Shown: positions 16,727 through 53,683 of the stretch, piece by piece
Numbering within the stretch: position 1 is the first letter of the stretch
Layout of the letters: each line of letters opens with the position of its first letter
From: Candidatus Hydrogenedens sp.
Lineage (GTDB): Bacteria > Hydrogenedentota > Hydrogenedentia > Hydrogenedentales > Hydrogenedentaceae
NCBI GenBank assembly: GCA_049968235.1
Contig: JBMFRC010000006.1
Coordinates: 96,001-160,000, forward strand
Length of the DNA stretch: 64,000 nucleotides
Direction of reading: 5' to 3'
Program-made: the position numbers and the translations under genes
The notes under the pieces: generated by a model
Seen by the model: only the letters and a program-made list of their open reading frames with translations
What the model was told of the DNA's origin: nothing
Databases searched by the model: none

Positions 16727-18238
16727 ATGATTGATACATTATTATTGAAAACATATATCACTATTCTTTCAGTCTTATCTAAGAATAAAGATAATCTATC
16801 CGAAAATTTCATTTCGCTTAACGATTTTTTACATCTTTTTTCTCAACCCAAACTCAACCTCATAAATACGAAAGACTTCTTACAACAGGTAGAAGAGTGT
16901 TTTAATCTTCACATAGAAACTGGAAATAAGCTACATTCTGTTCATTTGAATATTGATAAAATGATTGTATTAAATTGTCTGTCTATCTTTAATAAACTTA
17001 TCGGTAAAAATATTTTTTCTATTTATTATGAGGAAACACAAGAAGGTGGTTTTCTCATTCCGAATCTCACTTTGTTTTCATCGAATAATCTGGAGCAATT
17101 GTCAAATTTTATCTTGGTTAATAATTTTTTACCTTTAAATACTTCATTCATTAATACACAGTGGACTAAAATCACAAATGGTGGAAAAATACAAATCAAA
17201 CAAAATCAAATTATATTCAAGCTTGCTGGTTTTAAATTACCAGCCAGGAACAATCCTTTATGTGAATTTGCCCCTGAATTTTCTTCTGCATTAGAAGAAG
17301 AAATCGAAAGTCTCATCTCTAATTATATATCCTCATGGGATTTTAATAAGATAATTGATATTCATGTATTTTTCAATTCTATATGGGAATATTTAAGACC
17401 GTTTATAACTAATCCTAATAAAATAGAGATTAGAATAGATAAACCTATCCCTATACTAAAGATATCGGAACTCAGTTTATCTTCAATACTTCTTTGTAAT
17501 ATTTCTCCATTTATCATTTTGCATAACCTTCTAACAGGGATATTCAGTATTAGTTATGAGACAAAAGGGAAAAACTTTATGGTCGAAACAGTAATAAGAA
17601 CGGAGAAACCTTTTGAATATCCTTTAATTGCCCAAAGGGCAATTAAATATTTCGTGGAACAAATAAAAGGAAGTCTAACCATTGAAAGTAAACAAATAAA
17701 AAATGATTGTATATTTACAACTACACTTTCTATTCCCGACAATATCGGCATTTTTTTAGATACCGAATTACATGGTTGGGAGTGTCTAACAGCAGAAAGT
17801 CAGGATATTTTACGACGATTGAGTTATGAATGTTCAATACCTTATGAACATCCATTTATTTCAGAACTTATTCGATTTGAAATAGAAAATTATTTTCGTG
17901 AACTTTTCTCAAAGCCTCTATTTATCAATCTTTCCCATGAATTATTGGAGAGAAACAAGCGTTATATCAGTCATACTATAAAATCTATGTTAGAGGAAAT
18001 AGAAAAAGGAAAAATCAAAAAGAATTCTTTTAATCCTTTATCCATAGGACAAATAATGGATGCCTTTTTAAGTTTACCTGACGTAGAAAATAGATTTCGT
18101 AAAATTTTTAATACAGATACAGTCAATATGACACATTTATTAGAATTATCGAAAACATTAAAAGAATTCCCCCACTCCAGCAAATCATTGATTTCTATAT
18201 TAATTTTCTTTATACAAAATACAAAGAAGTCCAATTAA
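16727..18238 (+). CDS. Hypothetical protein (503 aa), orphan, very AT-rich
   Basis: The long ORF has no recognisable motif. It is flanked by a strongly AT-rich 110-bp upstream region and ends 6 nt before the convergent hydrogenase-like regulatory operon. Confidence 0.5.
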   Translation: MIDTLLLKTYITILSVLSKNKDNLSENFISLNDFLHLFSQPKLNLINTKDFLQQVEECFNLHIETGNKLHSVHLNIDKMIVLNCLSIFNKLIGKNIFSIYYEETQEGGFLIPNLTLFSSNNLEQLSNFILVNNFLPLNTSFINTQWTKITNGGKIQIKQNQIIFKLAGFKLPARNNPLCEFAPEFSSALEEEIESLISNYISSWDFNKIIDIHVFFNSIWEYLRPFITNPNKIEIRIDKPIPILKISELSLSSILLCNISPFIILHNLLTGIFSISYETKGKNFMVETVIRTEKPFEYPLIAQRAIKYFVEQIKGSLTIESKQIKNDCIFTTTLSIPDNIGIFLDTELHGWECLTAESQDILRRLSYECSIPYEHPFISELIRFEIENYFRELFSKPLFINLSHELLERNKRYISHTIKSMLEEIEKGKIKKNSFNPLSIGQIMDAFLSLPDVENRFRKIFNTDTVNMTHLLELSKTLKEFPHSSKSLISILIFFIQNTKKSN

Positions 18239-18244
18239 TAGCTT

Positions 18245-18784
18245 CTAAACTTTTAATGTTTTGATAATGTTATTTATTTCATTCTCTATTAACTTATATA
18301 TCTCTATATCATTCATATTCGAGAATCTTTCTCTACATTCTCCCGTGTGAATTGATAAAAGTGTGTGTGTATTGTGGATAATATAAATTTGCATATTAAT
18401 ATTGGGATTCGTAATAAACATTCCGGCAATGGAATTCCCTAAATCTCCTACTGGCATCCTGTCAATATTTGATAACACAAAAGTCAACGCAACCCTGGCA
18501 CCTCCTAAATCTTCACTTTTACCAATTACAACATCGCCACCGGCTCTTTCTGCTGAACCTTTAGCCAAACTTAATCCCATTCCCACTATTTTTGATTTTT
18601 TTGTTGTATAAAATGGGTCAAACAACTGTTCTTCATCAACGCTAAAACCTTTTCCATTATCTTCAATTATCAGGGTAAGCAAATCAGTTTCCTCATTTAT
18701 ATCCAACAAAATTCGTATCTCATTTGCACCTGCATTAATTGAATTTTCTATCAAATCAAGGATATGTAAAGAGAGTTCAATCAA
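18245..18784 (-). CDS. Stand-alone GHKL/histidine-kinase-like ATPase (HATPase_c) with no HisKA domain
   Basis: N, G1 (DNGKGF) and G2 (GMGLSL) boxes are present. There is no H-box or dimerisation domain, and an 80-aa C-terminal extension follows. It overlaps the upstream PHP gene by 8 nt. Confidence 0.7.
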   Translation of the reverse strand: MIELSLHILDLIENSINAGANEIRILLDINEETDLLTLIIEDNGKGFSVDEEQLFDPFYTTKKSKIVGMGLSLAKGSAERAGGDVVIGKSEDLGGARVALTFVLSNIDRMPVGDLGNSIAGMFITNPNINMQIYIIHNTHTLLSIHTGECRERFSNMNDIEIYKLIENEINNIIKTLKV

Positions 18785-19547
18785 TTTCTATGACCTCCAA
18801 AACAGTATTTGTCCTTATTCCTTTTTTTATACCGTCAAAAGTGAGACTATCCACGCATATTTCTGTTCGAACATGCCCAATTTCATCTATAGAATGTGCA
18901 TCTGAAGAAGTAATTACCGGAAGATTTTGAGGTAGTGAATATATGATACTTTTTAAAAGAAACTCTTTCTTTTCGATAACCCTTTTTACTGATATAGGTG
19001 ATATTTCTAACACATCAAACACATTGTCAGGAATAATACCCAGCTGGCTTGTAATAGAAAAAGAAGGGCGGTCAACATGACTGGCAATAATCATTGCGTT
19101 ATATTTTCTTAATAATGCAATTACATTTTCTAAATTCATACCCGATGATAAATACAGCGATTTTTCTTCTTCTCCTATAACTTCTCCTTTTGAATTAATA
19201 ATTAGCTGAGGTTCTAAAAAGTCTTTCTTGTTTAACTCTTCACTTAAAGTTTCTCTTATAATTTTTCCAACCGACTCTGCATCTTCTAAATCGGGAAATA
19301 TCCCTAAAACATGTACTTCTTCTTCAGTTGTAATCTCTATTCCTGGAAGAAATAATATCTGTGGGAACCAATTCTGTCCATATTCATAAAATGCCCGCAC
19401 ATTCCTCGTGCTATTGTGATCACATATAGCAAATGCATTTATCCCTTTTTTTATTAAGCGTGGATATATATTCTGGGGTAGCATCATTCGGTCTGCACAT
19501 GGGGATAAAACAGAATGAATATGTAAGTCAGAAAATAATATGGACAA
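18777..19547 (-). CDS. PHP-domain metal-dependent phosphoesterase
   Basis: The N-terminal DLHIHSVLSPC...ICDHN histidine motifs are typical of the PHP family. Confidence 0.75.
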   Translation of the reverse strand: MSILFSDLHIHSVLSPCADRMMLPQNIYPRLIKKGINAFAICDHNSTRNVRAFYEYGQNWFPQILFLPGIEITTEEEVHVLGIFPDLEDAESVGKIIRETLSEELNKKDFLEPQLIINSKGEVIGEEEKSLYLSSGMNLENVIALLRKYNAMIIASHVDRPSFSITSQLGIIPDNVFDVLEISPISVKRVIEKKEFLLKSIIYSLPQNLPVITSSDAHSIDEIGHVRTEICVDSLTFDGIKKGIRTNTVLEVIEID

Positions 19548-19551
19548 AACA

Positions 19552-19902
19552 CTACCCTCTTATACCCAACTCATACAATTTTCCAACAATATTAAATGCA
19601 GTATCGGAAGATGAAAATAATAATATTTTTTCTTGTTCTGCTTTCTTCATGACATTATCATCGGGATGGCGGTTTTGTATAAAAATGACTGCAGAAATTT
19701 CTGCATGGACACATACCGCTATTACATTGATATGTGTCTGTAAAGTAATTAGAATAGAGCCTTTTTTCGCATTTGCTAAAACATCACTCAGTAAATCCGA
19801 TACATACCCTTCACTAACTTCTCTATCTAATAAGTCAGCAATTTCAGGAGTAAGTAATTCCAATTGTAATTCCTCATAAATTTCTTTTAATTTCTTACTC
19901 AT
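19552..19902 (-). CDS. DRTGG-domain protein
   Basis: A small (about 116 aa) protein with a DRTGG-like core (ILITLQTHINVIAV...). It is a paralogue of the 21496-21840 product. Confidence 0.6.
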   Translation of the reverse strand: MSKKLKEIYEELQLELLTPEIADLLDREVSEGYVSDLLSDVLANAKKGSILITLQTHINVIAVCVHAEISAVIFIQNRHPDDNVMKKAEQEKILLFSSSDTAFNIVGKLYELGIRG

Positions 19903-19918
19903 ACATTTATCTCCATTT

Positions 19919-21499
19919 TTACATTCTATTCAAATATGGGCAGTTGTTTATATCTTTCTTCATTATTACAATGTCTTCTGCAAAATTCAAGCATGCGGGT
20001 GCTCCACAAACTCCACAATCATAGCCGGGTAATTTTTTATTTATTTTTTCTATCTCACTAAGTTTCTGAATCGCTATTCTTACATCCTCATCAAGTCGCA
20101 CACCTTTCCGTGAATTGATAGTGGATACACGGTATATTGCATCTATTTTTTGATTTTCATATTTATGCTTCTGTTCATTCCAGAATGAATCAAAAATTAT
20201 TTTTGACATGGTGGGTTCTTCACCCCAATATGGAGAGCCAAAACAGCCATTATAGCAAGCATACAATTCCACCATTTTTATAGGGACAGGTAATTGTTTC
20301 TTTTCTATATTTTCTAAAAACGTTTTTACCTGCTCTATTCCAGATATTGTTACTATGCCATCATTGCTATTTTTGTCAATATTTATATTGTGTATTTTAT
20401 CTTTTTGTTTTTTCTTATTTGTTTCTTTATATATATCCATTATCATTTCAAATGATTTCTGGGGAGAAATCATTTGAATAGAAATATCTAAATTTTTATT
20501 GTTATTAACTGCGGATATCTGAGCAGGACAAGAAGGTATAAAAAAGATATTTCGTCTTTCAGCGAAACTACTTATCGCTGTTTCTATAGGTCCCAAATAG
20601 GGAGCAATATTATCAATCAATGAAGGATATTCCGTTTGTATCCAGTATAGGACTGCGGGACAAACGGGTAATATTAAAGGGAAATTAATTTTTTCATTGT
20701 TCTCAATATATTTTTGTGTTTCTTTTTGTAATACTTCCTCCCATAATACTAATGGAAATACTTCCAATCCTTTTCTGTGGAATTTTTCTTCGAACTCATC
20801 CCATGAATAATAAAGTAGAATAGAAGCAATCCATGGTGAGGGGGCGATAAGTATTCCCTGCTTTTCCTTTTCATGATTTTTCTCGCAATCCTCCAAATCA
20901 AATACTTTCGTAGGACATATCTTTATACATTCATTACAATTGATGCAATGGTGAGACAAAATATACAAGTTTTTTTCATACAGTCTTATGGCTTTTGTGG
21001 GACATCTTGATAGACATTGCAAACATTTTTTACATTTCTCTGCCGTTACATGAACATAACTATCAACTTTTGAAAAATCTTTGTCTGACTTTACAAATAT
21101 AAGTATTTTTAACAAAGTGCCTGTGGGCTCGCTATGTATAACAAAGTAGTCTGAATTTTTCCTTATGTTAGGTAAACCCATTCCTGCTCCGAAACCCATT
21201 TCTCTTGCTTCGTCGGGTGCAGTAGAGTACCCTTCCTGAACAGCAAGGTCAATTCGGGGAATACCGGGTCCTGTATCCTTAACTACAATCTCAATTTTTT
21301 CATCATCTATTGTAAAATTAATTTCTCCTCCATAAGAATGGATAATAACATTCATCTCCGACTCATAAACGGCAATCATAATCTTTCGGATTATTTCGGG
21401 GGCTATTGCCAACTTACTTAATATTTCTTTAATTTTTGAAGAAACCTGTCCGCCACCTAAATAATCTCCTTTTTTTACTGGATATGAACCTGTAATCAT
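19919..21499 (-). CDS. Fusion protein: GHKL ATPase (anti-sigma/serine-kinase-like) + 2x[4Fe-4S] ferredoxin + [FeFe]-hydrogenase large-subunit-like domain with degenerate H-cluster motifs + RnfB-type Fe-S domain
   Basis: The N-terminus has HATPase motifs (DTGPGI, GFGAGMGLP). Two ferredoxin motifs follow: CKKCLQCLSRCP and CINCNECIKICP. The next domain carries PVCPAVLYW, IPSCPAQ and ELYACYNGCFGSP, which correspond loosely to the hydrogenase motifs TSCCP, MPCxxK and ExMACxxGC. The C-terminal DCGVCGAPACLNFAE...NCP matches the RnfB N-terminal Fe-S (Cx2Cx4C...C) domain. Confidence 0.65.
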   Translation of the reverse strand: MITGSYPVKKGDYLGGGQVSSKIKEILSKLAIAPEIIRKIMIAVYESEMNVIIHSYGGEINFTIDDEKIEIVVKDTGPGIPRIDLAVQEGYSTAPDEAREMGFGAGMGLPNIRKNSDYFVIHSEPTGTLLKILIFVKSDKDFSKVDSYVHVTAEKCKKCLQCLSRCPTKAIRLYEKNLYILSHHCINCNECIKICPTKVFDLEDCEKNHEKEKQGILIAPSPWIASILLYYSWDEFEEKFHRKGLEVFPLVLWEEVLQKETQKYIENNEKINFPLILPVCPAVLYWIQTEYPSLIDNIAPYLGPIETAISSFAERRNIFFIPSCPAQISAVNNNKNLDISIQMISPQKSFEMIMDIYKETNKKKQKDKIHNINIDKNSNDGIVTISGIEQVKTFLENIEKKQLPVPIKMVELYACYNGCFGSPYWGEEPTMSKIIFDSFWNEQKHKYENQKIDAIYRVSTINSRKGVRLDEDVRIAIQKLSEIEKINKKLPGYDCGVCGAPACLNFAEDIVIMKKDINNCPYLNRM

Positions 21500-21840
21500 T
21501 GTTGTATTTTTCCCTTTTCAAATATTCCATAAATGACACCACAGGTTTCATACATCTCTAAGGAAGATACTAAAAGAAAGGCTTTATTTTCTTCCGCACT
21601 TTCTATCAACTCATGGATAGGTTCTGAGTCTGTAATAAGACATATAGCAGGAACATCAAATATATTAAACAACTGAACTAGAGAGATATGATTTAAGTGT
21701 GTAATTATCAATGTGTTTTCGCTGGCTGAATGAATTAAATCACTAATTCGGTCCCCTGCAAAAACTTTCCCTATTTCTGTTTTTTCCCCTTTAACAACAA
21801 CCTCTATACCTAATACCTTTATAATATCCTGTATATCCAC
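21496..21840 (-). CDS. DRTGG-domain protein (first gene of operon)
   Basis: A 114-aa protein whose stop overlaps the start of the downstream fusion gene by 4 nt (ATGA). Confidence 0.6.
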   Translation of the reverse strand: MDIQDIIKVLGIEVVVKGEKTEIGKVFAGDRISDLIHSASENTLIITHLNHISLVQLFNIFDVPAICLITDSEPIHELIESAEENKAFLLVSSLEMYETCGVIYGIFEKGKIQQ

Positions 21841-24748: not shown

Positions 24749-25957
24749 TTAACCGAATATTTCTCTGGCTGTATAAAACAACTTCGGAATATCTAAATAA
24801 TAAGGACATTGCTCCATAGCAGTTCTAATCTGCTCTTTTGATAGATTTTCGATATATTTTTGAATATCTTTATAACAATAACGAGCCCAACTTTCATCTC
24901 CGTATCTCTTTGCATACAAAATACATCGCCAGACATCTTGCACATGTAGTTCTTCCTGCATACCTTTTTCACAATGCTGGTTACAACCGGCACAATAAAG
25001 ATGTTGTGTCCTTTCTGCTATATTTCTCAACTGTTGTTTTTCCAACTCTGTTAATTTCATAGGTGTTATCGCTGCATACGCATTTTCATGAACATGTTGT
25101 ATATTCCCCATTTGGGATGCAATACCTGCAATCCGTTCATCTTCCCACACTGCTTTCAATTTTGCCTGTATTTTTGTAAAATTTTTTGATGTCCATGGTA
25201 ATAATTCTTCGCCATCATCCGGAATACTACCTAATGTTTTAATTGCTACCAGCCCTATTCCTGCTTCTGTGCATGCATCTATTGCTCTATTTAAATTATC
25301 CTTTCCCATTTCACGAAAACTATACTTAAACATAATCACATCAATTCCTCCTCCTAGCTTGCTGGCTTTCATCATAAGTTCATGTGCATTCCCGTGATGA
25401 GCACTAAAACCAAAATAGCGTATTTTTCCCTCTTTTTTTAATTTATCCCCCATATCTATAAACTCTTTGTCCAAAAATCGTTCGTGCTTAACAATATGCA
25501 TGTAAAAAATATCTAAATAATCTGTCTCCAATTCCTGCAACGACAAATTTATATTCTCAACAAACTTTTCAGGAGTGGCTTTGTCCTCTGTTTGATGAAC
25601 TTTGGATGCAATTATCAACTTTTTTCTATCCCCAATTTGTTTAATAAAAGGAGCTATCGTTTTATGAGATTGTCCTTCTGCATACATTTGGGCAGTATCT
25701 AAATGATTTACCCCTAATTCGTATGCACGATGCAATCTTCTATCATATACCGGATCCAAATTTTGACAACATCCCATAATCAGGATAGGTGTTACAATAT
25801 CCGTTTTACCTAATTTCCTGACTGGAACCTTAGTTCCGGGAGGTATTTTCCAGGAACTCGGCTTATTTTCAGTCTCTTCCGAAAAACTTGTTTTAGTTAA
25901 TATGCTTGCTGTAGTTACTGTTTTAATTGTTTGTTCGATAAAATCTCTTCGATTCAT
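24749..25957 (-). CDS. Tat-signal aldo/keto reductase with Cys-rich C-terminal extension
   Basis: The N-terminus reads MNRRDFIEQ..., a twin-arginine RRxFI motif followed by a hydrophobic stretch. An AKR core follows (HLDTAQMY, GFSAH). The C-terminal 80 aa or so contain CAGCNQHC, C...C and CPYY. Confidence 0.7.
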   Translation of the reverse strand: MNRRDFIEQTIKTVTTASILTKTSFSEETENKPSSWKIPPGTKVPVRKLGKTDIVTPILIMGCCQNLDPVYDRRLHRAYELGVNHLDTAQMYAEGQSHKTIAPFIKQIGDRKKLIIASKVHQTEDKATPEKFVENINLSLQELETDYLDIFYMHIVKHERFLDKEFIDMGDKLKKEGKIRYFGFSAHHGNAHELMMKASKLGGGIDVIMFKYSFREMGKDNLNRAIDACTEAGIGLVAIKTLGSIPDDGEELLPWTSKNFTKIQAKLKAVWEDERIAGIASQMGNIQHVHENAYAAITPMKLTELEKQQLRNIAERTQHLYCAGCNQHCEKGMQEELHVQDVWRCILYAKRYGDESWARYCYKDIQKYIENLSKEQIRTAMEQCPYYLDIPKLFYTAREIFG

Positions 25958-26043: not shown

Positions 26044-26451
26044 ATGCCATTAATTCAATGGAACGATTCTTTAAGTGTCGGCATTCCTTCTATGGATACA
26101 CAACATCAAAAATTAATCAATATTATAAATCGACTACATGATGCTATGCGTGAAGGAAAAGGGAAAGATATTATATCCCCCGTATTAACGGAGTTACATA
26201 ATTATACCGTTACTCACTTTACAGCAGAAGAAAAATTAATGGAACAATGTAAATACAGTGGTCTTGCCGTTCAGAAACAACAACATAATAATTTTGTCAA
26301 TCAAATTAAAAAGTATCAGTCTGACTATGAAAAAGGTTCATTAACTCTTCCTCTTTCGGTTTCCAATTACTTAAAAGACTGGCTTATTAATCATATTCAG
26401 GGTCTGGATAAAAAATATGAGACATCTATGAAATCAGCAGGAATTAAATAG
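26044..26451 (+). CDS. Bacteriohemerythrin (hemerythrin-like di-iron protein), copy 1
   Basis: The protein contains MDTQHQ...HFTAEE...QHNNF...WLINHIQGLDKKY, a His/Glu/Asp iron-ligand pattern. Confidence 0.85.
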   Translation: MPLIQWNDSLSVGIPSMDTQHQKLINIINRLHDAMREGKGKDIISPVLTELHNYTVTHFTAEEKLMEQCKYSGLAVQKQQHNNFVNQIKKYQSDYEKGSLTLPLSVSNYLKDWLINHIQGLDKKYETSMKSAGIK

Positions 26452-26462
26452 GAGAAATATCT

Positions 26463-26870
26463 ATGGCTTTTCTCAATTGGAACGATAATTTTAATATTGG
26501 AATATTTCAAATTGATGCTCAACATAAAAATCTGGTTAATATTATTAATCAGTTATATGAAGCGATGAGTGTAGGGAAAGGAAAAGAAATTATTGGGAAA
26601 ATTGTAAAAGAATTGGCGGGTTATACAATTACTCATTTTGGCACTGAAGAGAAACTCATGCAGGAACATGGCTATCCTGAATTGCCTCAACATAAAAAAG
26701 AACATGAACTTTTTGTTAAAAAAGTTCAGGAATTTAATAATGAAATTCAAAAAGGGAATCTTATCATTGTTTCTAATGTTGCCAATTTCTTGAAGGAATG
26801 GTTGATAAAACATATTCAAGGAACCGATAAGAAATATGGTCCATTTTTAAAGGGAAAAGGGGTAAAATAG
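26463..26870 (+). CDS. Bacteriohemerythrin, copy 2 (tandem paralogue)
   Basis: It has the same length and motif pattern as copy 1 (IDAQHKN...HFGTEE...WLIKHIQGTDKKY) and starts 12 nt after copy 1 ends. Confidence 0.85.
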   Translation: MAFLNWNDNFNIGIFQIDAQHKNLVNIINQLYEAMSVGKGKEIIGKIVKELAGYTITHFGTEEKLMQEHGYPELPQHKKEHELFVKKVQEFNNEIQKGNLIIVSNVANFLKEWLIKHIQGTDKKYGPFLKGKGVK

Positions 26871-31461: not shown

Positions 31462-32880
31462 TTACTCTTGTGCTTCTTTGAATTGATTAATGATTGCTGT
31501 TAAGGTTTGTTTAGCGTCTCCAAAAATCATGCGTGTATTTTCTTTGAAGAAGAGCGGGTTTTCTACGCCGGAGAAACCGGAAGCAAGAGACCGCTTTAAG
31601 ACAAAACAGGTTTTGGCATAATCTACATTAATAATAGGCATTCCGTAGATGGCACTCTTGGGGTCTTCTCTTGCGGAGGGATTAACAACATCGTTTGCAC
31701 CGACTACGATACAAACATCTATCGTGTCAATTATCGGATTAATATCATCCATCTCCAGCAATTGGTCATAAGGGACATTGGCTTCTGCTAATAGGACATT
31801 CATGTGTCCTGGCATACGACCGGCAACAGGGTGAATGGCGTATTTTACTTCCGCTCCATTTTTTTCTAATAGGTCTGCTAATTCTTTTACTACATGTTGT
31901 GCTTGTGCAACTGCCATGCCATAGCCCGGAACAAAAACTACAGAACGAGCTGCTTCCAATACGAAATAGGCATCTTCAGGTGTTAATGCTTTCACTTCAC
32001 CGGTCACAGAAGTGCTCACTGCTCCTTCCGATGAACCAAAACCGCTGAACAGCACATTTGCAAGGGAACGGTTCATAGCTTTGCACATAATCGCTGTAAG
32101 GATAATACCACTGGCACCGACTAAGGAGCCTGCTACGATTAATACGGTGTTATTTAATACGAAACCGGAGGCACATGCTGCCATACCTGAATAACTGTTT
32201 AATAGACATATCACAACAGGCATATCTGCCCCGCCGATAGGGATGGTTACTAAAATACCAAGGATATTTGCTAATATCATTAGCAATATAACTGCGGGAT
32301 AAATTACAGTACCATTGGGACTTGCAAAGAAAAGGACTCCCATCAGGATGCCTAATCCTAATACAACAGCATTTACTAACTGTTGTCCCTTAAATAGGAT
32401 GGGCTTCCCTTGAATTTTTTCTTCTAACTTTGCGTAGGCAACCATACTTCCTGAGAATGTAACTCCACCAATCAGCATTGCTAAATAGGTGGCAAGTATT
32501 AAAACAATATTCTCAAGGCTATATTCACCATAACCTTTGCCGGTATAGGTAACATGGAAATCCGACCAACCAACTAACATACTGGCAAGTCCACCTGTTC
32601 CATTGAAAAATGCAACGAAGCCGGGCATGGAGGTCATCGGAACTTTAATTGCAGCAATGGCTCCAATAACAGTTCCGATAAGTCCACCGATTATTATCCA
32701 TTCGTAGGATTTAATTACCGGATTTACAAGCGTAACAGCAATAGCAAGGCACATTCCTAATCCGGAGATGATGTTTCCTTTAATGGCGGTTGTCGGTTTA
32801 CTGAGCATTTTCAGCCCAAGAATAAAAGTAACCGCCGATACCATATAGGCGACTTCAATTAATATTTTAATCTCGTTCAC
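31462..32880 (-). CDS. pntB: NAD(P) transhydrogenase subunit beta
   Basis: A polytopic N-terminal half is followed by a C-terminal NADP(H)-binding domain (GYGMAVAQAQH...VGANDVVNP). Confidence 0.9.
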   Translation of the reverse strand: MNEIKILIEVAYMVSAVTFILGLKMLSKPTTAIKGNIISGLGMCLAIAVTLVNPVIKSYEWIIIGGLIGTVIGAIAAIKVPMTSMPGFVAFFNGTGGLASMLVGWSDFHVTYTGKGYGEYSLENIVLILATYLAMLIGGVTFSGSMVAYAKLEEKIQGKPILFKGQQLVNAVVLGLGILMGVLFFASPNGTVIYPAVILLMILANILGILVTIPIGGADMPVVICLLNSYSGMAACASGFVLNNTVLIVAGSLVGASGIILTAIMCKAMNRSLANVLFSGFGSSEGAVSTSVTGEVKALTPEDAYFVLEAARSVVFVPGYGMAVAQAQHVVKELADLLEKNGAEVKYAIHPVAGRMPGHMNVLLAEANVPYDQLLEMDDINPIIDTIDVCIVVGANDVVNPSAREDPKSAIYGMPIINVDYAKTCFVLKRSLASGFSGVENPLFFKENTRMIFGDAKQTLTAIINQFKEAQE

Positions 32881-32882
32881 GG

Positions 32883-33374
32883 TTATTTCCTTTCCTTCCC
32901 TTTAAACATTCTTAACATTCTGTCTGTAACAAGATAACCACCTGCAACATTTATCATGGCACAAATCATTGCGATAACACCGATACCTATTAATAACACT
33001 GAATCTCTCCCCTGTCCTGCTGCCAGACAGGCACCGACAACTGTAATTCCTGATATAGCATTTGACCCGGACATAAGGGGCGTATGAAGTTGGGATGGAA
33101 CTTTGGTCAATATTTCCACTCCGAGAAATACCGCTATCAAAAAAGTAAATAGAAGTAATGTCATGGGGTTTAATGCCCTGGTACCGGGTGATGTTTGTTC
33201 TGTTGCACATTCCGTAGCAGTAATAGCGGGTATCATTCCTGTCCCTGCATTACTATCCGCTTTTACTTTTGTGAAACTTCCTAACAATAAAAGAGATAAG
33301 ATGGAAGCAAACACTACCAAACTTATCCATCCCATCAGTGGAATTTTATTTAGTTTTATTACATTTTTTTTCAT
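32883..33374 (-). CDS. pntA: NAD(P) transhydrogenase subunit alpha, part 2 (membrane)
   Basis: A small TM protein between pntA-I and pntB with an ATGA overlap with the upstream gene. Its N-terminus is longer than usual, so the true start may be internal. Confidence 0.7.
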   Translation of the reverse strand: MKKNVIKLNKIPLMGWISLVVFASILSLLLLGSFTKVKADSNAGTGMIPAITATECATEQTSPGTRALNPMTLLLFTFLIAVFLGVEILTKVPSQLHTPLMSGSNAISGITVVGACLAAGQGRDSVLLIGIGVIAMICAMINVAGGYLVTDRMLRMFKGKERK

Positions 33375-34504
33375 TGTGAACTCCTTGCCTTTTGTATTAA
33401 TTCATTTCTCAATTTGCCTTCATGAATTATCAAACATCCATTTAGAATTTCATCTTCTATTTTGTAATTGAACGATTTTGTTTCTTTATTCCAGAAATGT
33501 TCTATGAGATTCCCTAAATTAGCAGAATACATTTGACTTGCATGAACCGCCACGCGTCCCGGAAAATTCTCTGCTCCAATCACAATAACATTGTCTATTA
33601 TCACCTCTTCGCCGGGTTTTGAACCTTCGACATTTCCTCCCGTTTCTGCTGCAAGGTCTACAATAACACTGCCCGGCCTCATTGCTTTTATCATATCATT
33701 TGTAACCAATAGCGGAGCCTTCTTACCGAAAACCTGAGCGGTTGTTATTACAACATCAGACTGGGCTATAACTTTTTTCATGCCTTCCCGTTGTTTTTGT
33801 TTCTGTTCCTCTGTGAGTTCCAGTGCGTAACCATCTTTTGTTTGTCCGGTAGGTCCCACATCAATCTTCACAAATTTTGCCCCTAATGATAAGACCTGTT
33901 CTTCTACCACAGGTCTTGTATCGAATGCTTCCACTCGTGCACCTAATCGTTTTGCGGTGGCTATTGCCTGCAACCCAGCAACACCACAACCGATAATAAA
34001 AATGCGAATGGGCTTTAAAGTTCCCGCCGGTGTCATCATCATTGGAAATACCATCGGCAACCTATTTGCAGCAACTATAACCGCAACATAACCTGCTAAA
34101 TTTGCCTGTGAACTTAACGCATCCATCTTCTGGGCTAATGTGGTTCGTGGAATCATTTCCATCGAAATCGCGTTAACTTCACTTTTAATAAATTCATCCT
34201 GTATAGCAAAATCAAAGAAAGGTTCTAAATAACTAATATGCAAAGAACCTTTCTTTTGTAATTTAATTTCCTCGATAGGGGGTTTTCTTAATCGTAAAAC
34301 AATATCTGCGTTTTTCAATCCATCTTCACGTGATACCACCTTTGCACCTGCTTCAGTATATTGTGCATCTGAATAACCACAATTCCACCCCATATTGGAT
34401 TCAATACATACCTCTGCTCCCAACTTGACTAATTTTTTTACTGTATCGGGAACTATAGGTATGCGAGTCTCTTTAGAGTAGACTTCCTTTGGAATAAAAA
34501 TCAT
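33371..34504 (-). CDS. pntA: NAD(P) transhydrogenase subunit alpha, part 1 (AlaDH/PNT domain)
   Basis: The protein has an AlaDH/PNT N-domain and a Rossmann GxGxxG motif (IIGCGVAGLQA). Confidence 0.9.
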   Translation of the reverse strand: MIFIPKEVYSKETRIPIVPDTVKKLVKLGAEVCIESNMGWNCGYSDAQYTEAGAKVVSREDGLKNADIVLRLRKPPIEEIKLQKKGSLHISYLEPFFDFAIQDEFIKSEVNAISMEMIPRTTLAQKMDALSSQANLAGYVAVIVAANRLPMVFPMMMTPAGTLKPIRIFIIGCGVAGLQAIATAKRLGARVEAFDTRPVVEEQVLSLGAKFVKIDVGPTGQTKDGYALELTEEQKQKQREGMKKVIAQSDVVITTAQVFGKKAPLLVTNDMIKAMRPGSVIVDLAAETGGNVEGSKPGEEVIIDNVIVIGAENFPGRVAVHASQMYSANLGNLIEHFWNKETKSFNYKIEDEILNGCLIIHEGKLRNELIQKARSSQ

Positions 34505-34868: not shown

Positions 34869-35756
34869 ATGTTTCTCTTTTTTATTTCCATGTATGTGTT
34901 TTATAATTTATTATTCTTTTATTACTTACAAATGAGATGTAATAACAATATGCCTATACAATTACCTGCTGTTTATAAAATATTTTCAAATAACATGGGG
35001 CATATAGTTTTAAGAGAAGATTTATCCCATGACCTAATTGAAATACTATCTGCATTATTATCTAATTCTACACCGGACAAATTAATCCTTTTATCGGGTG
35101 GCAGAAATAATGTATTCTTATACAATTTCAATACTCACTTTTCCATTTTGATAAAGCAATATTCGCATGGTGGCATCTATAGAAATATTTTTCCCCGATA
35201 TTATTTTTTTTCTAATCGTTTTTTGAATGAATTTTATATGTATATAAATATATTAAAAAATAATTTATCTGTGCCTGAATATCTTGGGGGATTTTGGTCA
35301 AAAAAATTTGGACTTTACAAGTGTGGAATAATCACGAAGTACATCCCGTATACATATACATTAGACGAATATTTAAATAATAATTTCTATTCAATTGAAG
35401 AAAAATATGACATATTAATCAAATGTGGAAAAATTATTAAGAATATGCACGATATAGGAATTTTTCATAATGATTTACAAATTCGAAATTTATTAATCAG
35501 TTCTACAGAAAAATCTGTTTATATAATTGATTTTGACAATGCAAAAAAGGTATCCACATTAAATAGTTATTATTGTTCACAAAATTTATTACGATTAAAA
35601 CGCTCTTTTCTAAAAAGGGGTATCAGTACAGAATTTTTTAATATCCTGTTAAATGGTTATGGTATTTCTCATCTCTCTTTCCTTGCAGAAGTCTTTTCAT
35701 TTCCTCATATACAATGGATAAATTATAAAAATCGTTATATTAATAAAAACAAATAG
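34869..35756 (+). CDS. Kdo/WaaP-family lipopolysaccharide kinase-like protein (protein-kinase-like fold), copy 1
   Basis: Catalytic-loop and DFG-like segments are present: IFHNDLQIRNLLI ... YIIDFDNAK. An alternative start at the ATG at 34950 would remove the hydrophobic N-terminal 27 aa. Confidence 0.65.
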   Translation: MFLFFISMYVFYNLLFFYYLQMRCNNNMPIQLPAVYKIFSNNMGHIVLREDLSHDLIEILSALLSNSTPDKLILLSGGRNNVFLYNFNTHFSILIKQYSHGGIYRNIFPRYYFFSNRFLNEFYMYINILKNNLSVPEYLGGFWSKKFGLYKCGIITKYIPYTYTLDEYLNNNFYSIEEKYDILIKCGKIIKNMHDIGIFHNDLQIRNLLISSTEKSVYIIDFDNAKKVSTLNSYYCSQNLLRLKRSFLKRGISTEFFNILLNGYGISHLSFLAEVFSFPHIQWINYKNRYINKNK

Positions 35757-35762
35757 ATAATA

Positions 35763-36542
35763 ATGAAATACAGTAAGAAATCAAAATATCATATTTGGTC
35801 AAATGAAGATAACTTTGACCCAGATGTTTTTTTGACTGAAATATTCAATACAGGAAAAGTATTAAAAGAAACAGATAAAACTTCTTCTCTCCAATGGTAT
35901 TCTTACTTTGTAAAAAAGACAAACTATTCTCTTTCTGAAGGGATATTCAGGCATCTCTTTTTATCAAGCCGTTGTAGAAGTGCATGGAATATTAGCAACT
36001 ACTTAATAGATAATCATATACCTACACCAAAACCTGTTGCATATCTTGAATTGTTAAAATATTCATTACCTTATCAGCATTTTTTCATTTCAGAATATCT
36101 ACGCGGTAGTTATAATATTGAGGTATTCATTAGAGATGGTATTTATTTGAGTAAAGGTATAACATTAGAATACTTCTTTGAGATAATGAAAAGATTTCTT
36201 ATTCTTTTGTGGGATAAAGGAGTATATCATAAAGACCTATCTGGTAAAAATCTATTGACAATGGAAGGAGAACCTATATATTTAATTGATTTAGATGCTA
36301 CCTATTTGATAAATCATTTTGCGATAAAATATAAAATAAGGAATTTAACACAGATTTATGATTCCTTCTGTGATTTCGTTAATGAAAAAATACTGAAAGA
36401 TTTCATTTTCACAATGCTTGATGATTTATCATTAAAGGAAATAAAGATAATCTATACTAAGATACAACAACTCCAGAAGCAACGAAGAAACCAACATTTA
36501 AGGAATATTCAGCGGTATAATAAAAAGGATAATTTATCATAA
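35763..36542 (+). CDS. Kdo/WaaP-family lipopolysaccharide kinase-like protein, copy 2 (divergent paralogue)
   Basis: The protein contains VYHKDLSGKNLLT ... YLIDLDATY. It starts 7 nt after copy 1. Confidence 0.65.
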   Translation: MKYSKKSKYHIWSNEDNFDPDVFLTEIFNTGKVLKETDKTSSLQWYSYFVKKTNYSLSEGIFRHLFLSSRCRSAWNISNYLIDNHIPTPKPVAYLELLKYSLPYQHFFISEYLRGSYNIEVFIRDGIYLSKGITLEYFFEIMKRFLILLWDKGVYHKDLSGKNLLTMEGEPIYLIDLDATYLINHFAIKYKIRNLTQIYDSFCDFVNEKILKDFIFTMLDDLSLKEIKIIYTKIQQLQKQRRNQHLRNIQRYNKKDNLS

Positions 36543-37810
36543 TGGAAAAAGAGAATGAAATTACAAAATTAGATTGGCTGGACGACAATATCCGGAATTA
36601 CATTCAATCCATATATCGAGTTCAGCACTTTTATTCAAATTTAACGGATATTGAACAACTTATTGTAATTATTACAGAAGAATGTAAAAAAGCATGTAAT
36701 GCGGAAGCAGGTTCTTTACTACTCTATGATGAGAAAAAGGAAGAACTCTTTTTTCAGGTAACTTTAGGTCCGGTGGGTTCTGAAATAGTAAAGAAAGAAA
36801 TTCGCATACCTGTAAACTGTGGTATTGCCGGGGAAGTTGCAAGAACAAAAAGACCTTTGATTGTTAATGATGTCAAAAACGATTCTCGTTTTTTCCCGGG
36901 GGTAGACATAGCAACTCAGTTTTCGACACGGAATATTCTTGCAGTCCCATTGATTGACCGCCAACGATTAATTGGCGTTATTGAGATGGTTAATAAAATA
37001 GGTAATGCACCCTTTTCGCATGAAGACCTCCGTTTCCTGGAAATATTAGCATCATGGGCTGCTTCTGCTGTTGTAAGTTCACAATTAATACAAGAGAAAT
37101 TACAGGCGGAACGATTTGCTACAATAGGTTATACATTAACCGCATTAGCACATCATTTGAAGAATATACTTACGGGAATGTTAACCAGCACAGAACTTAT
37201 CGAAAAATCATTGAACCAAAAAAATTATGAGGTTGTTCATAAAGCCTGGCCTGTCCTTAAAAGGACTTCCCTTTATGTTTTTGAGTTTGTCAAAGATTTA
37301 TTATTATTTTCAAAATCTCGAACCCCACAAAAAGTATATTGTCATTTAGAAGATATAACCAATAAGGTATCCGAATTTTTTTTCGACCTTTTTTCAAACC
37401 GTCAAATCGAACTCATCATTGATATTTCTCGGGTGAAGGACAAAGTATTCCTTGACCCCAACGGCATTATTCATTGTTTAACCAACTTACTTCTAAATTC
37501 TGGTGAAGCAGTTCCAGAAAAGAAAGGAGTTGTAAAAATTGAAGGGGAATTGTCTCAAAACAAAGATTTGATTATTACAGTATCTGATAATGGAAAAGGA
37601 ATTCCATCGGAAGATATTGAACATATTTTTGAACCGTTTTTTACAACAAAGGGTTATCGGGGAACTGGTTTAGGTTTGTCTGTTACCCAAAAGATAGTAG
37701 AGGAACATGGCGGTAGAATTAAGGTTGTTAGCGAAAAGGACAAAGGAACAAAATTTATTATTACACTTCCCCAGACAAATACAGAAATAAATAGAAAGGA
37801 GACAACTTAA
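36542..37810 (+). CDS. GAF-domain sensor histidine kinase (orphan; no response regulator nearby)
   Basis: A GAF domain in the N-terminal half is followed by an H-box (LTALAHHLKN) and HATPase G-boxes (DNGKGIP, GTGLGLSV). Its start overlaps the stop of the upstream kinase gene. Confidence 0.8.
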   Translation: MEKENEITKLDWLDDNIRNYIQSIYRVQHFYSNLTDIEQLIVIITEECKKACNAEAGSLLLYDEKKEELFFQVTLGPVGSEIVKKEIRIPVNCGIAGEVARTKRPLIVNDVKNDSRFFPGVDIATQFSTRNILAVPLIDRQRLIGVIEMVNKIGNAPFSHEDLRFLEILASWAASAVVSSQLIQEKLQAERFATIGYTLTALAHHLKNILTGMLTSTELIEKSLNQKNYEVVHKAWPVLKRTSLYVFEFVKDLLLFSKSRTPQKVYCHLEDITNKVSEFFFDLFSNRQIELIIDISRVKDKVFLDPNGIIHCLTNLLLNSGEAVPEKKGVVKIEGELSQNKDLIITVSDNGKGIPSEDIEHIFEPFFTTKGYRGTGLGLSVTQKIVEEHGGRIKVVSEKDKGTKFIITLPQTNTEINRKETT

Positions 37811-52528: not shown

Positions 52529-53683
52529 ATGGAACCCTACTCTTTTGCAAATATTCTCAATAAATGGAATTCAGAACTTATTAACGAGGTATATGAAAAA
52601 ACCAATGAAGACAAAGTATTGTATGCGTTAGGGAAAGAATCTTTATCTATTGAAGATTTAATTGCCCTTCTTTCACCAAAAGCATTACCTTTCCTCGAAA
52701 AAATGGCTCAAAAAGCAAACCGATTAACACGCTGGCATTTTGGAAGAACTATATCCATATACGCACCTATATATCTTTCAAATCTTTGTGCTTCGGATTG
52801 TGTATATTGCTATTTTGCATCGCACTCCGGTATTCGTGAAAAACGAGTTACACTTACCGAAGAAGAAATACGAGGGGAATGCATTGAACTGAACAAAAAA
52901 GGTATTCAAACCATATTACTTTTGACAGGTGATGCCCCTAAAATAGTTACTGTGGACTATATATCTCAGGCAGTCCGTATCGCAAAAGAGTACTTTAAAT
53001 CGGTTAGTATCGAGGTATATTCTATGGATGAAGAGCATTATACTCAATTAGCAAATGACGGGACAGAAGGGGTCACCTTATATATGGAAACTTATGATAA
53101 AGAAACTTATGATAAAGTGCACTTATCTGGAAAGAAAAAAGACTATCTATATCGACTCGATGCTCTGGAAAGAGCGGGTAGAGCCGGTATCCGCAGGCTT
53201 ACTTGCGGAGTCCTGCTTGGATTAAGTGACTGGCGTCTCGATGTTGTTTGGCTTGCTTTACATGCAAAATATTTAGAAAAAATGTGCTGGAAAAGTGTGA
53301 TTTCACTTTCTTTCCCAAGACTAAAACATACACCTTCTCGATTTAAAGTACCTCATTTAGTCAGCCTTCAAGAATTGGTTCAAATTATTACCGCAATGCG
53401 ACTTTTTATGCCTTATTCTCCTTTTAACCTAAGTACTCGAGAAAGTGCAGAAGTACGAAATCATCTAATTCCGTTAGGGATTACTTCTATGAGTGCTGGC
53501 TCGTCAACACGACCCGGAGGATATAAAATTTACCAGAATGTTACTGATACACAACGTCCCGTATTAGAACAATTCGAAATTGATGACCACCGAACTGTGG
53601 AAGGAGTTATATCTGCCATTAAAAATAAAGGATACGACCCTGTCTGGGTTGACTTTGAACCCGGTTTTATAAAATCATTATAG
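52529..53683 (+). CDS. thiH: 2-iminoacetate synthase (radical SAM, tyrosine lyase)
   Basis: The radical-SAM CASDCVYC motif is present, and the gene lies directly downstream of thiG. Confidence 0.85.
   Translation: MEPYSFANILNKWNSELINEVYEKTNEDKVLYALGKESLSIEDLIALLSPKALPFLEKMAQKANRLTRWHFGRTISIYAPIYLSNLCASDCVYCYFASHSGIREKRVTLTEEEIRGECIELNKKGIQTILLLTGDAPKIVTVDYISQAVRIAKEYFKSVSIEVYSMDEEHYTQLANDGTEGVTLYMETYDKETYDKVHLSGKKKDYLYRLDALERAGRAGIRRLTCGVLLGLSDWRLDVVWLALHAKYLEKMCWKSVISLSFPRLKHTPSRFKVPHLVSLQELVQIITAMRLFMPYSPFNLSTRESAEVRNHLIPLGITSMSAGSSTRPGGYKIYQNVTDTQRPVLEQFEIDDHRTVEGVISAIKNKGYDPVWVDFEPGFIKSL

Follow-up and report, generated by a model that had tools for sequence, protein, structure and literature searches.

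In a 64,000-nt stretch of Candidatus Hydrogenedens sp. DNA (GCA_049968235.1, contig JBMFRC010000006.1, positions 96,001-160,000; hereafter the window), five open reading frames (ORFs) on the minus strand are tightly packed between 18245 and 21840. In transcription order, they are S1 (21496-21840), for a small DRTGG-fold protein of 114 residues; FUS (19919-21499), for a 526-residue fusion of a GHKL ATPase, a two-[4Fe-4S] F-domain, a degenerate H-domain of the [FeFe]-hydrogenase type, and a C-terminal Cx2Cx4Cx16C cluster; S2 (19552-19902), for a second DRTGG paralogue of 116 residues; PHP (18777-19547), for a PHP-family metal-dependent phosphoesterase of 256 residues with its metal site intact; and HATP (18245-18784), for a stand-alone histidine-kinase-type catalytic (CA) domain of 179 residues. 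S1 overlaps FUS by 4 nt and PHP overlaps HATP by 8 nt, while 16 nt separate FUS from S2 and 4 nt separate S2 from PHP. An original prediction made on this DNA had described the same five genes in the same order, and both the coordinates and the domains were confirmed from the ORF list and Pfam, with S1 assigned through its family and an AlphaFold2 (AF2) model. Where the prediction saw a set of parts unusual in themselves, we find a module with known relatives: it is a variant of the sensory-hydrogenase module of Group D (HydDB C1), with the GHKL domain fused, the pocket degenerate, and no linked hydrogenase.

Reading FUS from its N terminus (all of its features lie on the minus strand), residues 1-135 (21095..21499) form a SpoIIAB-like GHKL ATP-binding domain. 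Pfam and NCBIfam detect HATPase_c/HATPase_c_2 over residues 19-132 (HATPase_c_2 E 3e-8) and the spoIIAB family TIGR01925 at E 3e-12; the sequence also matches PDB entries 1l0o and 1til, and Foldseek retrieves 1til_E, which is SpoIIAB in complex with SpoIIAA, at a template-modeling (TM) score of 0.80 and a root-mean-square deviation (rmsd) of 2.8 Å. The N-box (E46..N50), G1 box (D75xGxG79), and G2 box (G102xGxGxG108) are invariant in the family. By sequence and model, this ATPase appears closest to the anti-sigma-kinase type of SpoIIAB, and not to Hsp90 or MutL. Next comes the F-domain, at residues 149-205 (20885..21055), in which two CxxCxxCxxxCP motifs, scored by Pfam as two Fer4 motifs within residues 150-200, provide C156, C159, C162, and C166 and then C185, C188, C191, and C195, all invariant or nearly so. 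The H-domain remnant occupies residues 206-430 (20210..20884), as delimited by the profile match to hydrogenase H-domains and by column counts, and includes at about residues 355-385 (20345..20437) a low-complexity Lys/Asn-rich linker evident in the alignment and disordered in the AF2 model. The C-terminal segment, residues 470-526 (19922..20092), carries the [4Fe-4S] motif C495-x2-C498-x4-C503-x16-C520 (FeS, PF04060, E 1e-10), whose Cys residues are invariant.

The central domain had been predicted to be hydrogenase-related, as opposed to a generic Fe-S oxidoreductase, and this is upheld, because profile and fold searches both match hydrogenases. Fe_hyd_lg_C is detected at E 3e-11, over the C-terminal part (the last third) of that profile only. 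When compared with the PDB, a profile of the central region (alignment A2) matches nothing other than [FeFe]-hydrogenase H-domains, with C280 aligned to the ligand Cys of TSCCP and C415/C419 to the pair in MACxxGC, and the body of the AF2 model (predicted local distance difference test score [pLDDT] 85, predicted TM score [pTM] 0.84) has [FeFe] hydrogenases as its top Foldseek matches. The partial H-cluster motifs called earlier, LPVCP, IPSCPAQ, and ELYACYNGC, are present in the FUS sequence. By Pfam, there is no PAS domain in FUS and no PAS, HisKA, or PP2C domain in any of the five products; membership in the hfs-type or PAS-HydS systems was rejected on the lack of PAS and PP2C.

It is among the Group D enzymes that FUS finds its family. 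Carere et al. assigned Cthe_0335, TTE0887, Csac_1857, and further proteins to the putative sensory hydrogenases of "Group D M2e," encoded five genes upstream of a bifurcating HydABC (PMC3561251). The only characterized Group D enzyme is TamHydS of Thermoanaerobacter mathranii (Land et al.), which combines an F-domain and an H-domain with a Cx2Cx4Cx16C motif at the C terminus, lacks Cys299, carries the changes M353S and M497L, and is of low activity (PMC8163306). The Cx2Cx4Cx16C motif has been described for the M2e and M2f enzymes (PMC8163306), and the signaling route of TamHydS is called unknown in the papers, since the protein has no PAS domain and its C-terminal cluster is not reduced by H2 (PMC8163306, PMC13104023). 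We rebuilt the TamHydS protein from the coding sequence given in the supplementary information of PMC13104023, and it fits the Cys pattern and all the published residue numbers (C20, F119, E122, K126, A137, L157, S191, E252, L291, and C379; PMC11803613). FUS residues 149-511 align collinearly with TamHydS residues 7-395 in BLASTP (27% identity, E 6e-41), the F-domain Cys falling on C14-C53 of TamHydS. FUS is a relative of the Group D/M2e (HydDB C1) putative sensory [FeFe] hydrogenases, in a distinct subclade with a fused GHKL domain, and it descends from a Group D sensory hydrogenase. The nearest parallel to the locus had been sought in hfs-type or HydS-associated kinase/phosphatase loci; it is instead the Group D/M2e locus upstream of HydABC, with Cthe_0335 and TTE0887 at the same position. 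The likeness extends beyond the collinear F-domain, H-domain, and C-terminal cluster and the absent Cys299 to the surroundings: in most relatives the gene is upstream of a bifurcating HydABC, and it is flanked by genes for a small GHKL ATPase, two DRTGG proteins, and a PHP protein, as judged by position for Cthe_0335-0339 and TTE0887-0891. Unlike the Group D enzymes, FUS has its GHKL domain fused, Gln in place of Lys358, neither the M353 hydroxyl nor Pro354, the E252 loop deleted, and no adjacent hydrogenase.

A scan of species-representative genomes found relatives in at least 596 genomes, of which 80 loci, the top-scoring subset, were kept, and an alignment of all homologues splits cleanly in two. 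Clade I, which includes TamHydS, is found in Bacillota, Bacteroidota, Synergistota, Chlorobiaceae, Atribacterota, and others; clade II comprises the window and other Hydrogenedentes together with Planctomycetota, Actinomycetota, Spirochaetota, and Verrucomicrobiota. The clades differ in gene architecture, the GHKL domain being a separate gene of about 135 codons just upstream of hydS in all 64 clade I loci, whereas it is in the same ORF in 19 of 19 clade II loci and in the window. That GHKL is fused in all loci, which would mean that TamHydS had been studied as a truncated protein, was considered and rejected, since the tblastn high-scoring segment pairs had crossed stop codons and the clade I gene is separate throughout. 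In those 64 loci (L017-L083), the GHKL stop and the hydS start are in-frame and a few codons apart, about 400 nt past the start of the match; tblastn reads through this arrangement, which could mislead automated domain calls. That every clade I locus of the top-80 set shows it is probably an effect of ranking bias.

The motifs around the H-cluster site divide along the same line: S[ST]xCP in clade I versus xPxCP in clade II at L1, [ST]PCxAK versus xxCPxQ/E at L2, and CxxGCxGG versus CxxGCFGS at L3, while the W/FxxSGGE pocket loop of clade I is replaced in clade II by a variable low-complexity linker. The four H-site Cys (C280, C324, C415, and C419 in FUS) are present in 64/64 clade I and 20/20 clade II proteins. 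Lys at the K358 position is found in 62 of 64 clade I proteins and in none of the 20 in clade II (18 Gln, 2 Glu; Q327 in FUS); the P354 equivalent is kept in 63/64 versus 1/20 (S323 in FUS); the M353 position is Ser or Thr in 62/64 of clade I (P322 in FUS); and the E252 relay residue is kept in 61/64 versus 1/20. FUS reads P322-S323-C324-P-A-Q327 and not S/T-P-C-x-A-K, and so has neither the M2e hydroxyl nor the equivalents of Pro354 and Lys358. The position of C299 is V279 in FUS, and Ala, Val, Phe, or Tyr across the family; that of M497 is Y413; and E411, the equivalent of TamHydS E289 and of the Glu in the CpI motif E-x-M-A-C, is kept. The FUS linker takes the place of the conserved W/FxxSGG[E/V] loop that carries the Group D proton relay E252, and residues 363-378 within it are the sole disordered stretch (pLDDT below 50) of the AF2 model. 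In TamHydS, the substitutions E252V and E252D leave less than 0.01% of the H2-oxidation activity (PMC10407848). FUS has therefore kept the Cys ligands of its two F-clusters, of the H-site cubane, and of the C-terminal cluster, four [4Fe-4S] clusters in all, and has lost the residues by which the di-iron subsite is held and operated, namely, the equivalents of Lys358 and Pro354 and the loop with the E252 relay. Because the Fe-S ligands are kept and the di-iron-site residues lost, FUS would be a four-[4Fe-4S] protein that reports redox state, not H2. Catalysis is very unlikely, and the idea of a noncatalytic, sensory or redox-reporting domain was broadly right.

There is a precedent for such a protein in eukaryotic Nar1/NARFL, in which an H-domain with the cubane Cys kept functions without the di-iron subsite. 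Nar1/NARFL belongs to another lineage, has a different domain set and role (cytosolic Fe-S assembly), and has no GHKL, DRTGG, or PHP partners.

The two small proteins proved harder to place. S1 has no Pfam match on its own sequence, and S2 has weak matches to DRTGG (E 2e-4, below the cut-off) and to Hpr_kinase_N. The two align as one family (alignment A3), in which 19 of 24 members match DRTGG PF07085; D30, S33, and T47 are invariant, and the DRTGG signature (GDR...T[G]) is present. The AF2 model of S1 (pLDDT 89.5) has as its best PDB match 2ioj, the DRTGG protein AF1212 (TM 0.83, rmsd 2.3 Å), and also matches 3l2b. Neither Pfam nor Foldseek gives a STAS match for the small proteins. The designed "Pizza" beta-propeller proteins that topped the search of A3 against the PDB were set aside as an artefact of six summed weak repeat matches. 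S2, at 47-59% identity to its clade II orthologues, is the best-conserved gene of the module.

What these proteins might do is suggested by natural fusions of two kinds. In Actinomycetota/Thermoleophilia, the S1 orthologue is the C-terminal extension of a complete Rex, with winged helix and NADH-binding Rossmann domain (Put_DNA-bind_N 6e-15, CoA_binding 5e-16), encoded directly upstream of the FUS orthologue and HydABC (L011:8872-9972, L012:8910-9974, L019:7768-8910, L020:8877-9980, and L054:8896-9981). Rex is the NADH/NAD+-sensing repressor of fermentation and hydrogenase genes, and the fusion ties the DRTGG protein to it. We found no earlier description of a Rex-DRTGG protein in the literature. 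In the window, S1 is free-standing, and there is no Rex gene within the 64 kb; a search for S1 homologues reached 11 close relatives, with no fusions among them. The other fusion, DRTGG with HATPase_c_2 in one protein of 269-270 residues, occurs at L028:9590-10402 and L067:9614-10423, with a separate hydS gene next. By the logic of gene fusion, two domains in a single polypeptide would be a classic sign of interacting partners, here DRTGG and GHKL.

The PHP product matches Pfam PHP and PHP_C, and the family of 69 sequences conserves DlHiH, LSPC, tDHN, pGmE, H79, aHidR, and sSDaH, the full metal-binding set; against the PDB, there is a weak match to RNase AM (7ug9). HATP matches Pfam HATPase_c (E 3e-14) with no HisKA/DHp domain, and its PDB matches are the CA domains of YycG, ZraS, KdpD, FixL, and CpxA. 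The N, G1, F, and G2 boxes are conserved in 42 orthologues, and a C-terminal extension of about 70 residues carries a conserved DRxPLGD motif. A DHp/HisKA domain with a phospho-accepting His is absent from both FUS and HATP, neither of which has a HisKA match. In one relative syntenic with the window, L003 (GCA_017880035.1), the HATPase is called as two ORFs of 70 and 109 residues (L003:12732-13264), so that either a frameshift has occurred, or the gene is turning into a pseudogene, or the assembly is wrong here.

Outside the Hydrogenedentes, the setting of the module is largely that of a hydrogenase operon. In two loci from two other phyla (L001 and L002), the five genes are followed immediately, in the same orientation, by those encoding a protein like NuoE, a small ferredoxin-like protein, a fusion of NuoF with GltD, and HydA. 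In Planctomycetota, Actinomycetota, Spirochaetota, and Bacillota, HydABC comes right after the module. The clade II order is S1-FUS-S2-PHP-HATP-HydC-x-HydB-HydA; the Bacillota order is S1-GHKL-HydS-S2-PHP-HydC-HATP-x-HydB-HydA, with HATP between hydC and the small ferredoxin-like gene. The two DRTGG paralogues and the stand-alone HATPase are, like PHP, standard parts in dozens of loci and many phyla. (The L001 HydA, at 17335-19107, and PDB entry 7q4v_A both have TSCSP in place of the textbook L1 motif TSCCP.) Among the 44 loci with at least 8 kb on both sides, Hydrogenedentes left out, HATP and an adjacent hydrogenase are both present in 31 and both missing in 13, with no mixed case (Fisher 2e-11, with no correction for phylogeny). 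This co-occurrence makes HATP the hydrogenase-linked element, and the core that can occur by itself consists of S1, GHKL, HydS, and PHP, usually with S2. Where modules in other phyla lack a hydrogenase, the neighbors show no shared alternative target.

At least seven clade II loci encode, downstream of hydA, a second sensory hydrogenase (L002:19029-21074, with equivalents in L010-L013, L019, and L020) that is fused to HisKA and HATPase and has both K358 and the SGG loop; response regulator genes come next. Given that position, one HydABC has a hydrogenase-derived sensor of a different kind on either side.

The Hydrogenedentes depart from the usual linkage to HydABC. All five genes, with no hydrogenase within 10 kb, are found in the window, in three syntenic relatives (L003, L084, and L085, at 40-50% identity), and in two loci in other contexts; GCA_026415215.1 also counts among the syntenic relatives. 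HydA, NuoF, and NuoE are absent from the five related loci and from the window, where tblastn over the full 64 kb returned nothing, and Pfam found no hydrogenase or maturase among the module genes and some 40 other large window ORFs, which are ordinary housekeeping genes. The sole radical-SAM/BATS protein found (ORF 52529-53683), a candidate for the HydG maturase, was rejected as ThiH. The module is, as predicted, isolated in the window. The further proposal that it is not the flank of a nearby catalytic hydrogenase holds for the 18-kb and 42-kb flanks here and fails elsewhere, where the module is a conserved HydABC flank. The five ORFs are intact, at 35-50% identity, in the window and in L084-L087, which between them offer three unrelated genomic settings. 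The module is flanked by hisG and a glycosyltransferase gene in L086, and in L087 it lies behind a single-domain response regulator. That regulator (L087:9226-9624, Ca. Hydrogenedens sp. GCA_001577815.1) is 5 nt upstream of S1 and is a possible partner for the orphan CA-domain protein.

Much of the core of this observation was anticipated by Zheng and Huang (2024), who surveyed 179 Hydrogenedentota genomes and, using HydDB naming, reported 53 "group C1" [FeFe] hydrogenases (PMC11406978). In these, the P1-P3 H-cluster motifs were hardly findable, and a HATPase_C domain was present that is absent from the best HydDB match; 21 were beside a group A3 BfuABC and 32 of the 53 were not, and a role was judged "difficult to speculate" (PMC11406978). 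Most Hydrogenedentota genomes encode a group A3 hydrogenase (PMC11406978). That survey already contains the fusion to HATPase, the absence of the motifs, and the many cases with no hydrogenase next door, and its group C1 proteins, from the same phylum, are evidently of the same family as FUS. The DRTGG, PHP, and stand-alone HATPase partners are not in it, nor are the clade I/clade II split and the mapping of the losses onto K358 and E252; more generally, we found no description in the literature of DRTGG, PHP, or second HATPase partners in a hydrogenase context. What the present analysis adds is the set of conserved partners, a division into clades that maps onto experimentally defined residues, and the fusions together with the HATP-HydABC rule. 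The Rex-DRTGG and DRTGG-GHKL fusions in other phyla and the perfect co-occurrence of HATP with adjacent HydABC outside the Hydrogenedentes are new.

As a circuit, the module resembles SpoIIAB-SpoIIAA-SpoIIE and RsbW-RsbV-RsbU/P, in which a small GHKL domain of the Ser/Thr-kinase type (HATPase_c_2 class) is encoded together with small single-domain partners and a phosphoesterase. It differs from these in that the partners are DRTGG and not STAS proteins, the phosphoesterase is PHP and not PP2C, no sigma factor is nearby, and the kinase is fused to an Fe-S sensor. With the Group C sensory hydrogenases (TmHydS, RaHydS, and HfsB) and the hfs loci, it shares a low-activity hydrogenase homologue controlling H2 metabolism and the Cx2Cx4Cx16C motif; the PAS or HisKA domains, K358, and PP2C or two-component regulator partners of those systems are absent here. 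The original prediction of a kinase/phosphatase partner switch or phospho-relay was a reasonable one in light of the SpoIIAB-type ATPase, although the phospho-relay itself is only inferred.

The explanation we favor, with confidence a little above even, is that the operon is a regulatory module ancestrally attached to a bifurcating HydABC/BfuABC hydrogenase and here physically uncoupled from it, an Fe-S redox-gated kinase/phosphatase acting in trans. FUS would no longer sense H2 directly; it would report how far its Fe-S chain is reduced, with reduced ferredoxin as the most plausible electron donor, and this would gate the GHKL domain. The two DRTGG proteins would be binding partners or substrates of GHKL, in the role that STAS proteins have for SpoIIAB, as the natural DRTGG-GHKL fusions suggest, and would carry the output. 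Since the first DRTGG protein is fused to Rex in Actinomycetota, that output may be transcriptional and combine NADH and ferredoxin signals; pairing Rex (NADH) with an Fe-S sensor (ferredoxin or H2) would make physiological sense because a bifurcating hydrogenase consumes NADH and reduced ferredoxin together. PHP, as the opposing phosphoesterase, would reverse the modification and reset the system, and HATP, the hydrogenase-specific element, would couple it to the hydrogenase, in which case its retention here predicts a BfuABC hydrogenase, encoded at another site in the genome, on which the module acts in trans. We infer all four steps of this scheme from the homologies, fusions, and co-occurrences, which are what was observed.

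Several points weigh against that explanation. The case for a DRTGG-GHKL partnership comes from gene order and two kinds of fusion, and, to our knowledge, no DRTGG domain is a known kinase substrate. The enzymes closest in sequence to PHP are nucleases or nucleotide phosphatases, not protein phosphatases. Beside the module in the window there is no sigma factor, anti-sigma target, or DNA-binding partner, and Pfam detects no sigma factor among the window ORFs scanned. The co-occurrence of HATP with HydABC is uncorrected for phylogeny and drawn from 80 loci that are the top-scoring of at least 596. Finally, the loss of the di-iron site is read from residue changes, and a cyanide ligand could still find a hydrogen-bond partner in Gln or Glu at the K358 position.

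This last point opens the way to a true H2 sensor, in which the clade II proteins would bind the di-iron subsite in a remodeled pocket, with Gln327 as the cyanide hydrogen-bond partner, and H2 would reduce the Fe-S chain and switch the fused kinase. The four H-cluster Cys, including the equivalent of the bridging Cys, are invariant, E411 is kept, the family adjoins HydABC in most phyla, and Group C and D enzymes tolerate large changes in the pocket (PMC8163306). However, K358, P354, and the SGGE loop with E252 are all lost together, and substitution of E252 alone is nearly abolishing in TamHydS (PMC10407848). Moreover, such a sensor would be redundant in the seven or more clade II loci with a separate K358-containing hydrogenase-histidine-kinase, and Zheng and Huang likewise could not find P1-P3 (PMC11406978). 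We regard an H2-sensing FUS as quite unlikely. A different view of the same genes, unlikely but to be taken seriously, is that they form an accessory unit, or one for assembly or repair, that serves the bifurcating hydrogenase or Fe-S/flavin enzymes in general. The GHKL domains would then be chaperone-like ATPases, PHP a phosphoesterase acting on nucleotides or cofactors, and the DRTGG proteins adaptors that bind nucleotides. The position of HATP inside the Bacillota hydABC operon and its perfect co-occurrence with the enzyme would suit such a unit, as would the nucleases and nucleotide phosphatases nearest to PHP, the DRTGG domains that act as regulatory nucleotide-linked modules in CBS-pyrophosphatases (the 3l2b match), and the lack of a DNA-binding protein in the module in most phyla. 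Against it, the Rex-DRTGG fusion links S1 to a transcription factor, the GHKL domain of FUS is closest to the anti-sigma kinase SpoIIAB and not to Hsp90 or MutL, the solved HydABC complexes (7p5h, 7q4v, and 8a6t) are described as HydA/B/C only, and the core is kept with no adjacent enzyme in 13 loci and the whole Hydrogenedentes set.

A further notion is that the module is an evolutionary relic, decaying with no present function after the neighboring hydrogenase genes were lost or moved. A degenerate pocket, no hydrogenase within 64 kb, and a HATPase gene split in two ORFs in L003 are what such decay might look like, but the relic is highly improbable when all five ORFs are intact here and in L084-L087 at such divergence and in unrelated contexts, and when there is no variation in the ATP-binding boxes, the 20 cluster Cys, the metal site of PHP, or the signature residues of DRTGG. 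The pocket itself argues in the same direction, since clade II proteins still beside HydABC show the same degeneracy, which must therefore predate the uncoupling.

A scan of the module for promoters and terminators gave no signal above shuffles. Convergent on it, with 6 nt between the stops, is a plus-strand gene for a 503-residue protein with no Pfam or NCBIfam match (16727-18238), which has the same position in L003, L084, and L085 and is missing from L086 and L087. This orphan and the upstream 5'-nucleotidase gene were considered as parts of the module and rejected, being syntenic in one Hydrogenedentes lineage only and absent from L086 and L087. Redox-related neighbors kept in synteny are an aldo-keto reductase with a twin-arginine-like N terminus and a Cys-rich C terminus (24749-25957, minus strand), two tandem hemerythrins (26044-26870, plus strand), and, about 10 kb away, the PntAB transhydrogenase (31462-34504, minus strand). 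Two Kdo/WaaP-like kinase genes followed by a GAF-HisKA-HATPase histidine kinase gene lie at 34869-37810 on the plus strand. The G+C content of the window, 30-41% in 2-kb bins, is mostly below the lowest genome value (36.6%) of the published Hydrogenedentota catalogue, which would place the lineage at the low-GC edge of that catalogue or outside it.

Bifurcating [FeFe] hydrogenases set the balance of H2, NADH, and ferredoxin in fermenters, syntrophs, and gut and digester communities, and their regulation is largely unknown. On the boldest view of our results, the five genes represent an undescribed and widespread signaling architecture, present in at least 596 species-representative genomes, in which a hydrogenase-derived Fe-S protein gates a SpoIIAB-like kinase, with DRTGG proteins as partners, PHP as the protein phosphatase, and the CA domain coupling the system to the hydrogenase. 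This would be the missing signal route of Group D, and in the fused, Lys-less clade the sensor would have come to respond to ferredoxin or redox state in place of H2 and would be free to act on targets other than a neighboring hydrogenase. So much taken together is tentative, and we doubt that it will hold in every part. In any case, candidate signaling partners can now be named for Group D: the GHKL kinase domain, the two DRTGG proteins, PHP, and a CA-domain protein strictly tied to HydABC. With the Rex fusion pointing to a likely output, and with a "loss-of-H-cluster" variant occurring in nature to set beside TamHydS, Group D signaling becomes directly testable. For this Ca. Hydrogenedens genome, the prediction is of a trans-acting redox regulator and of a BfuABC hydrogenase encoded elsewhere.

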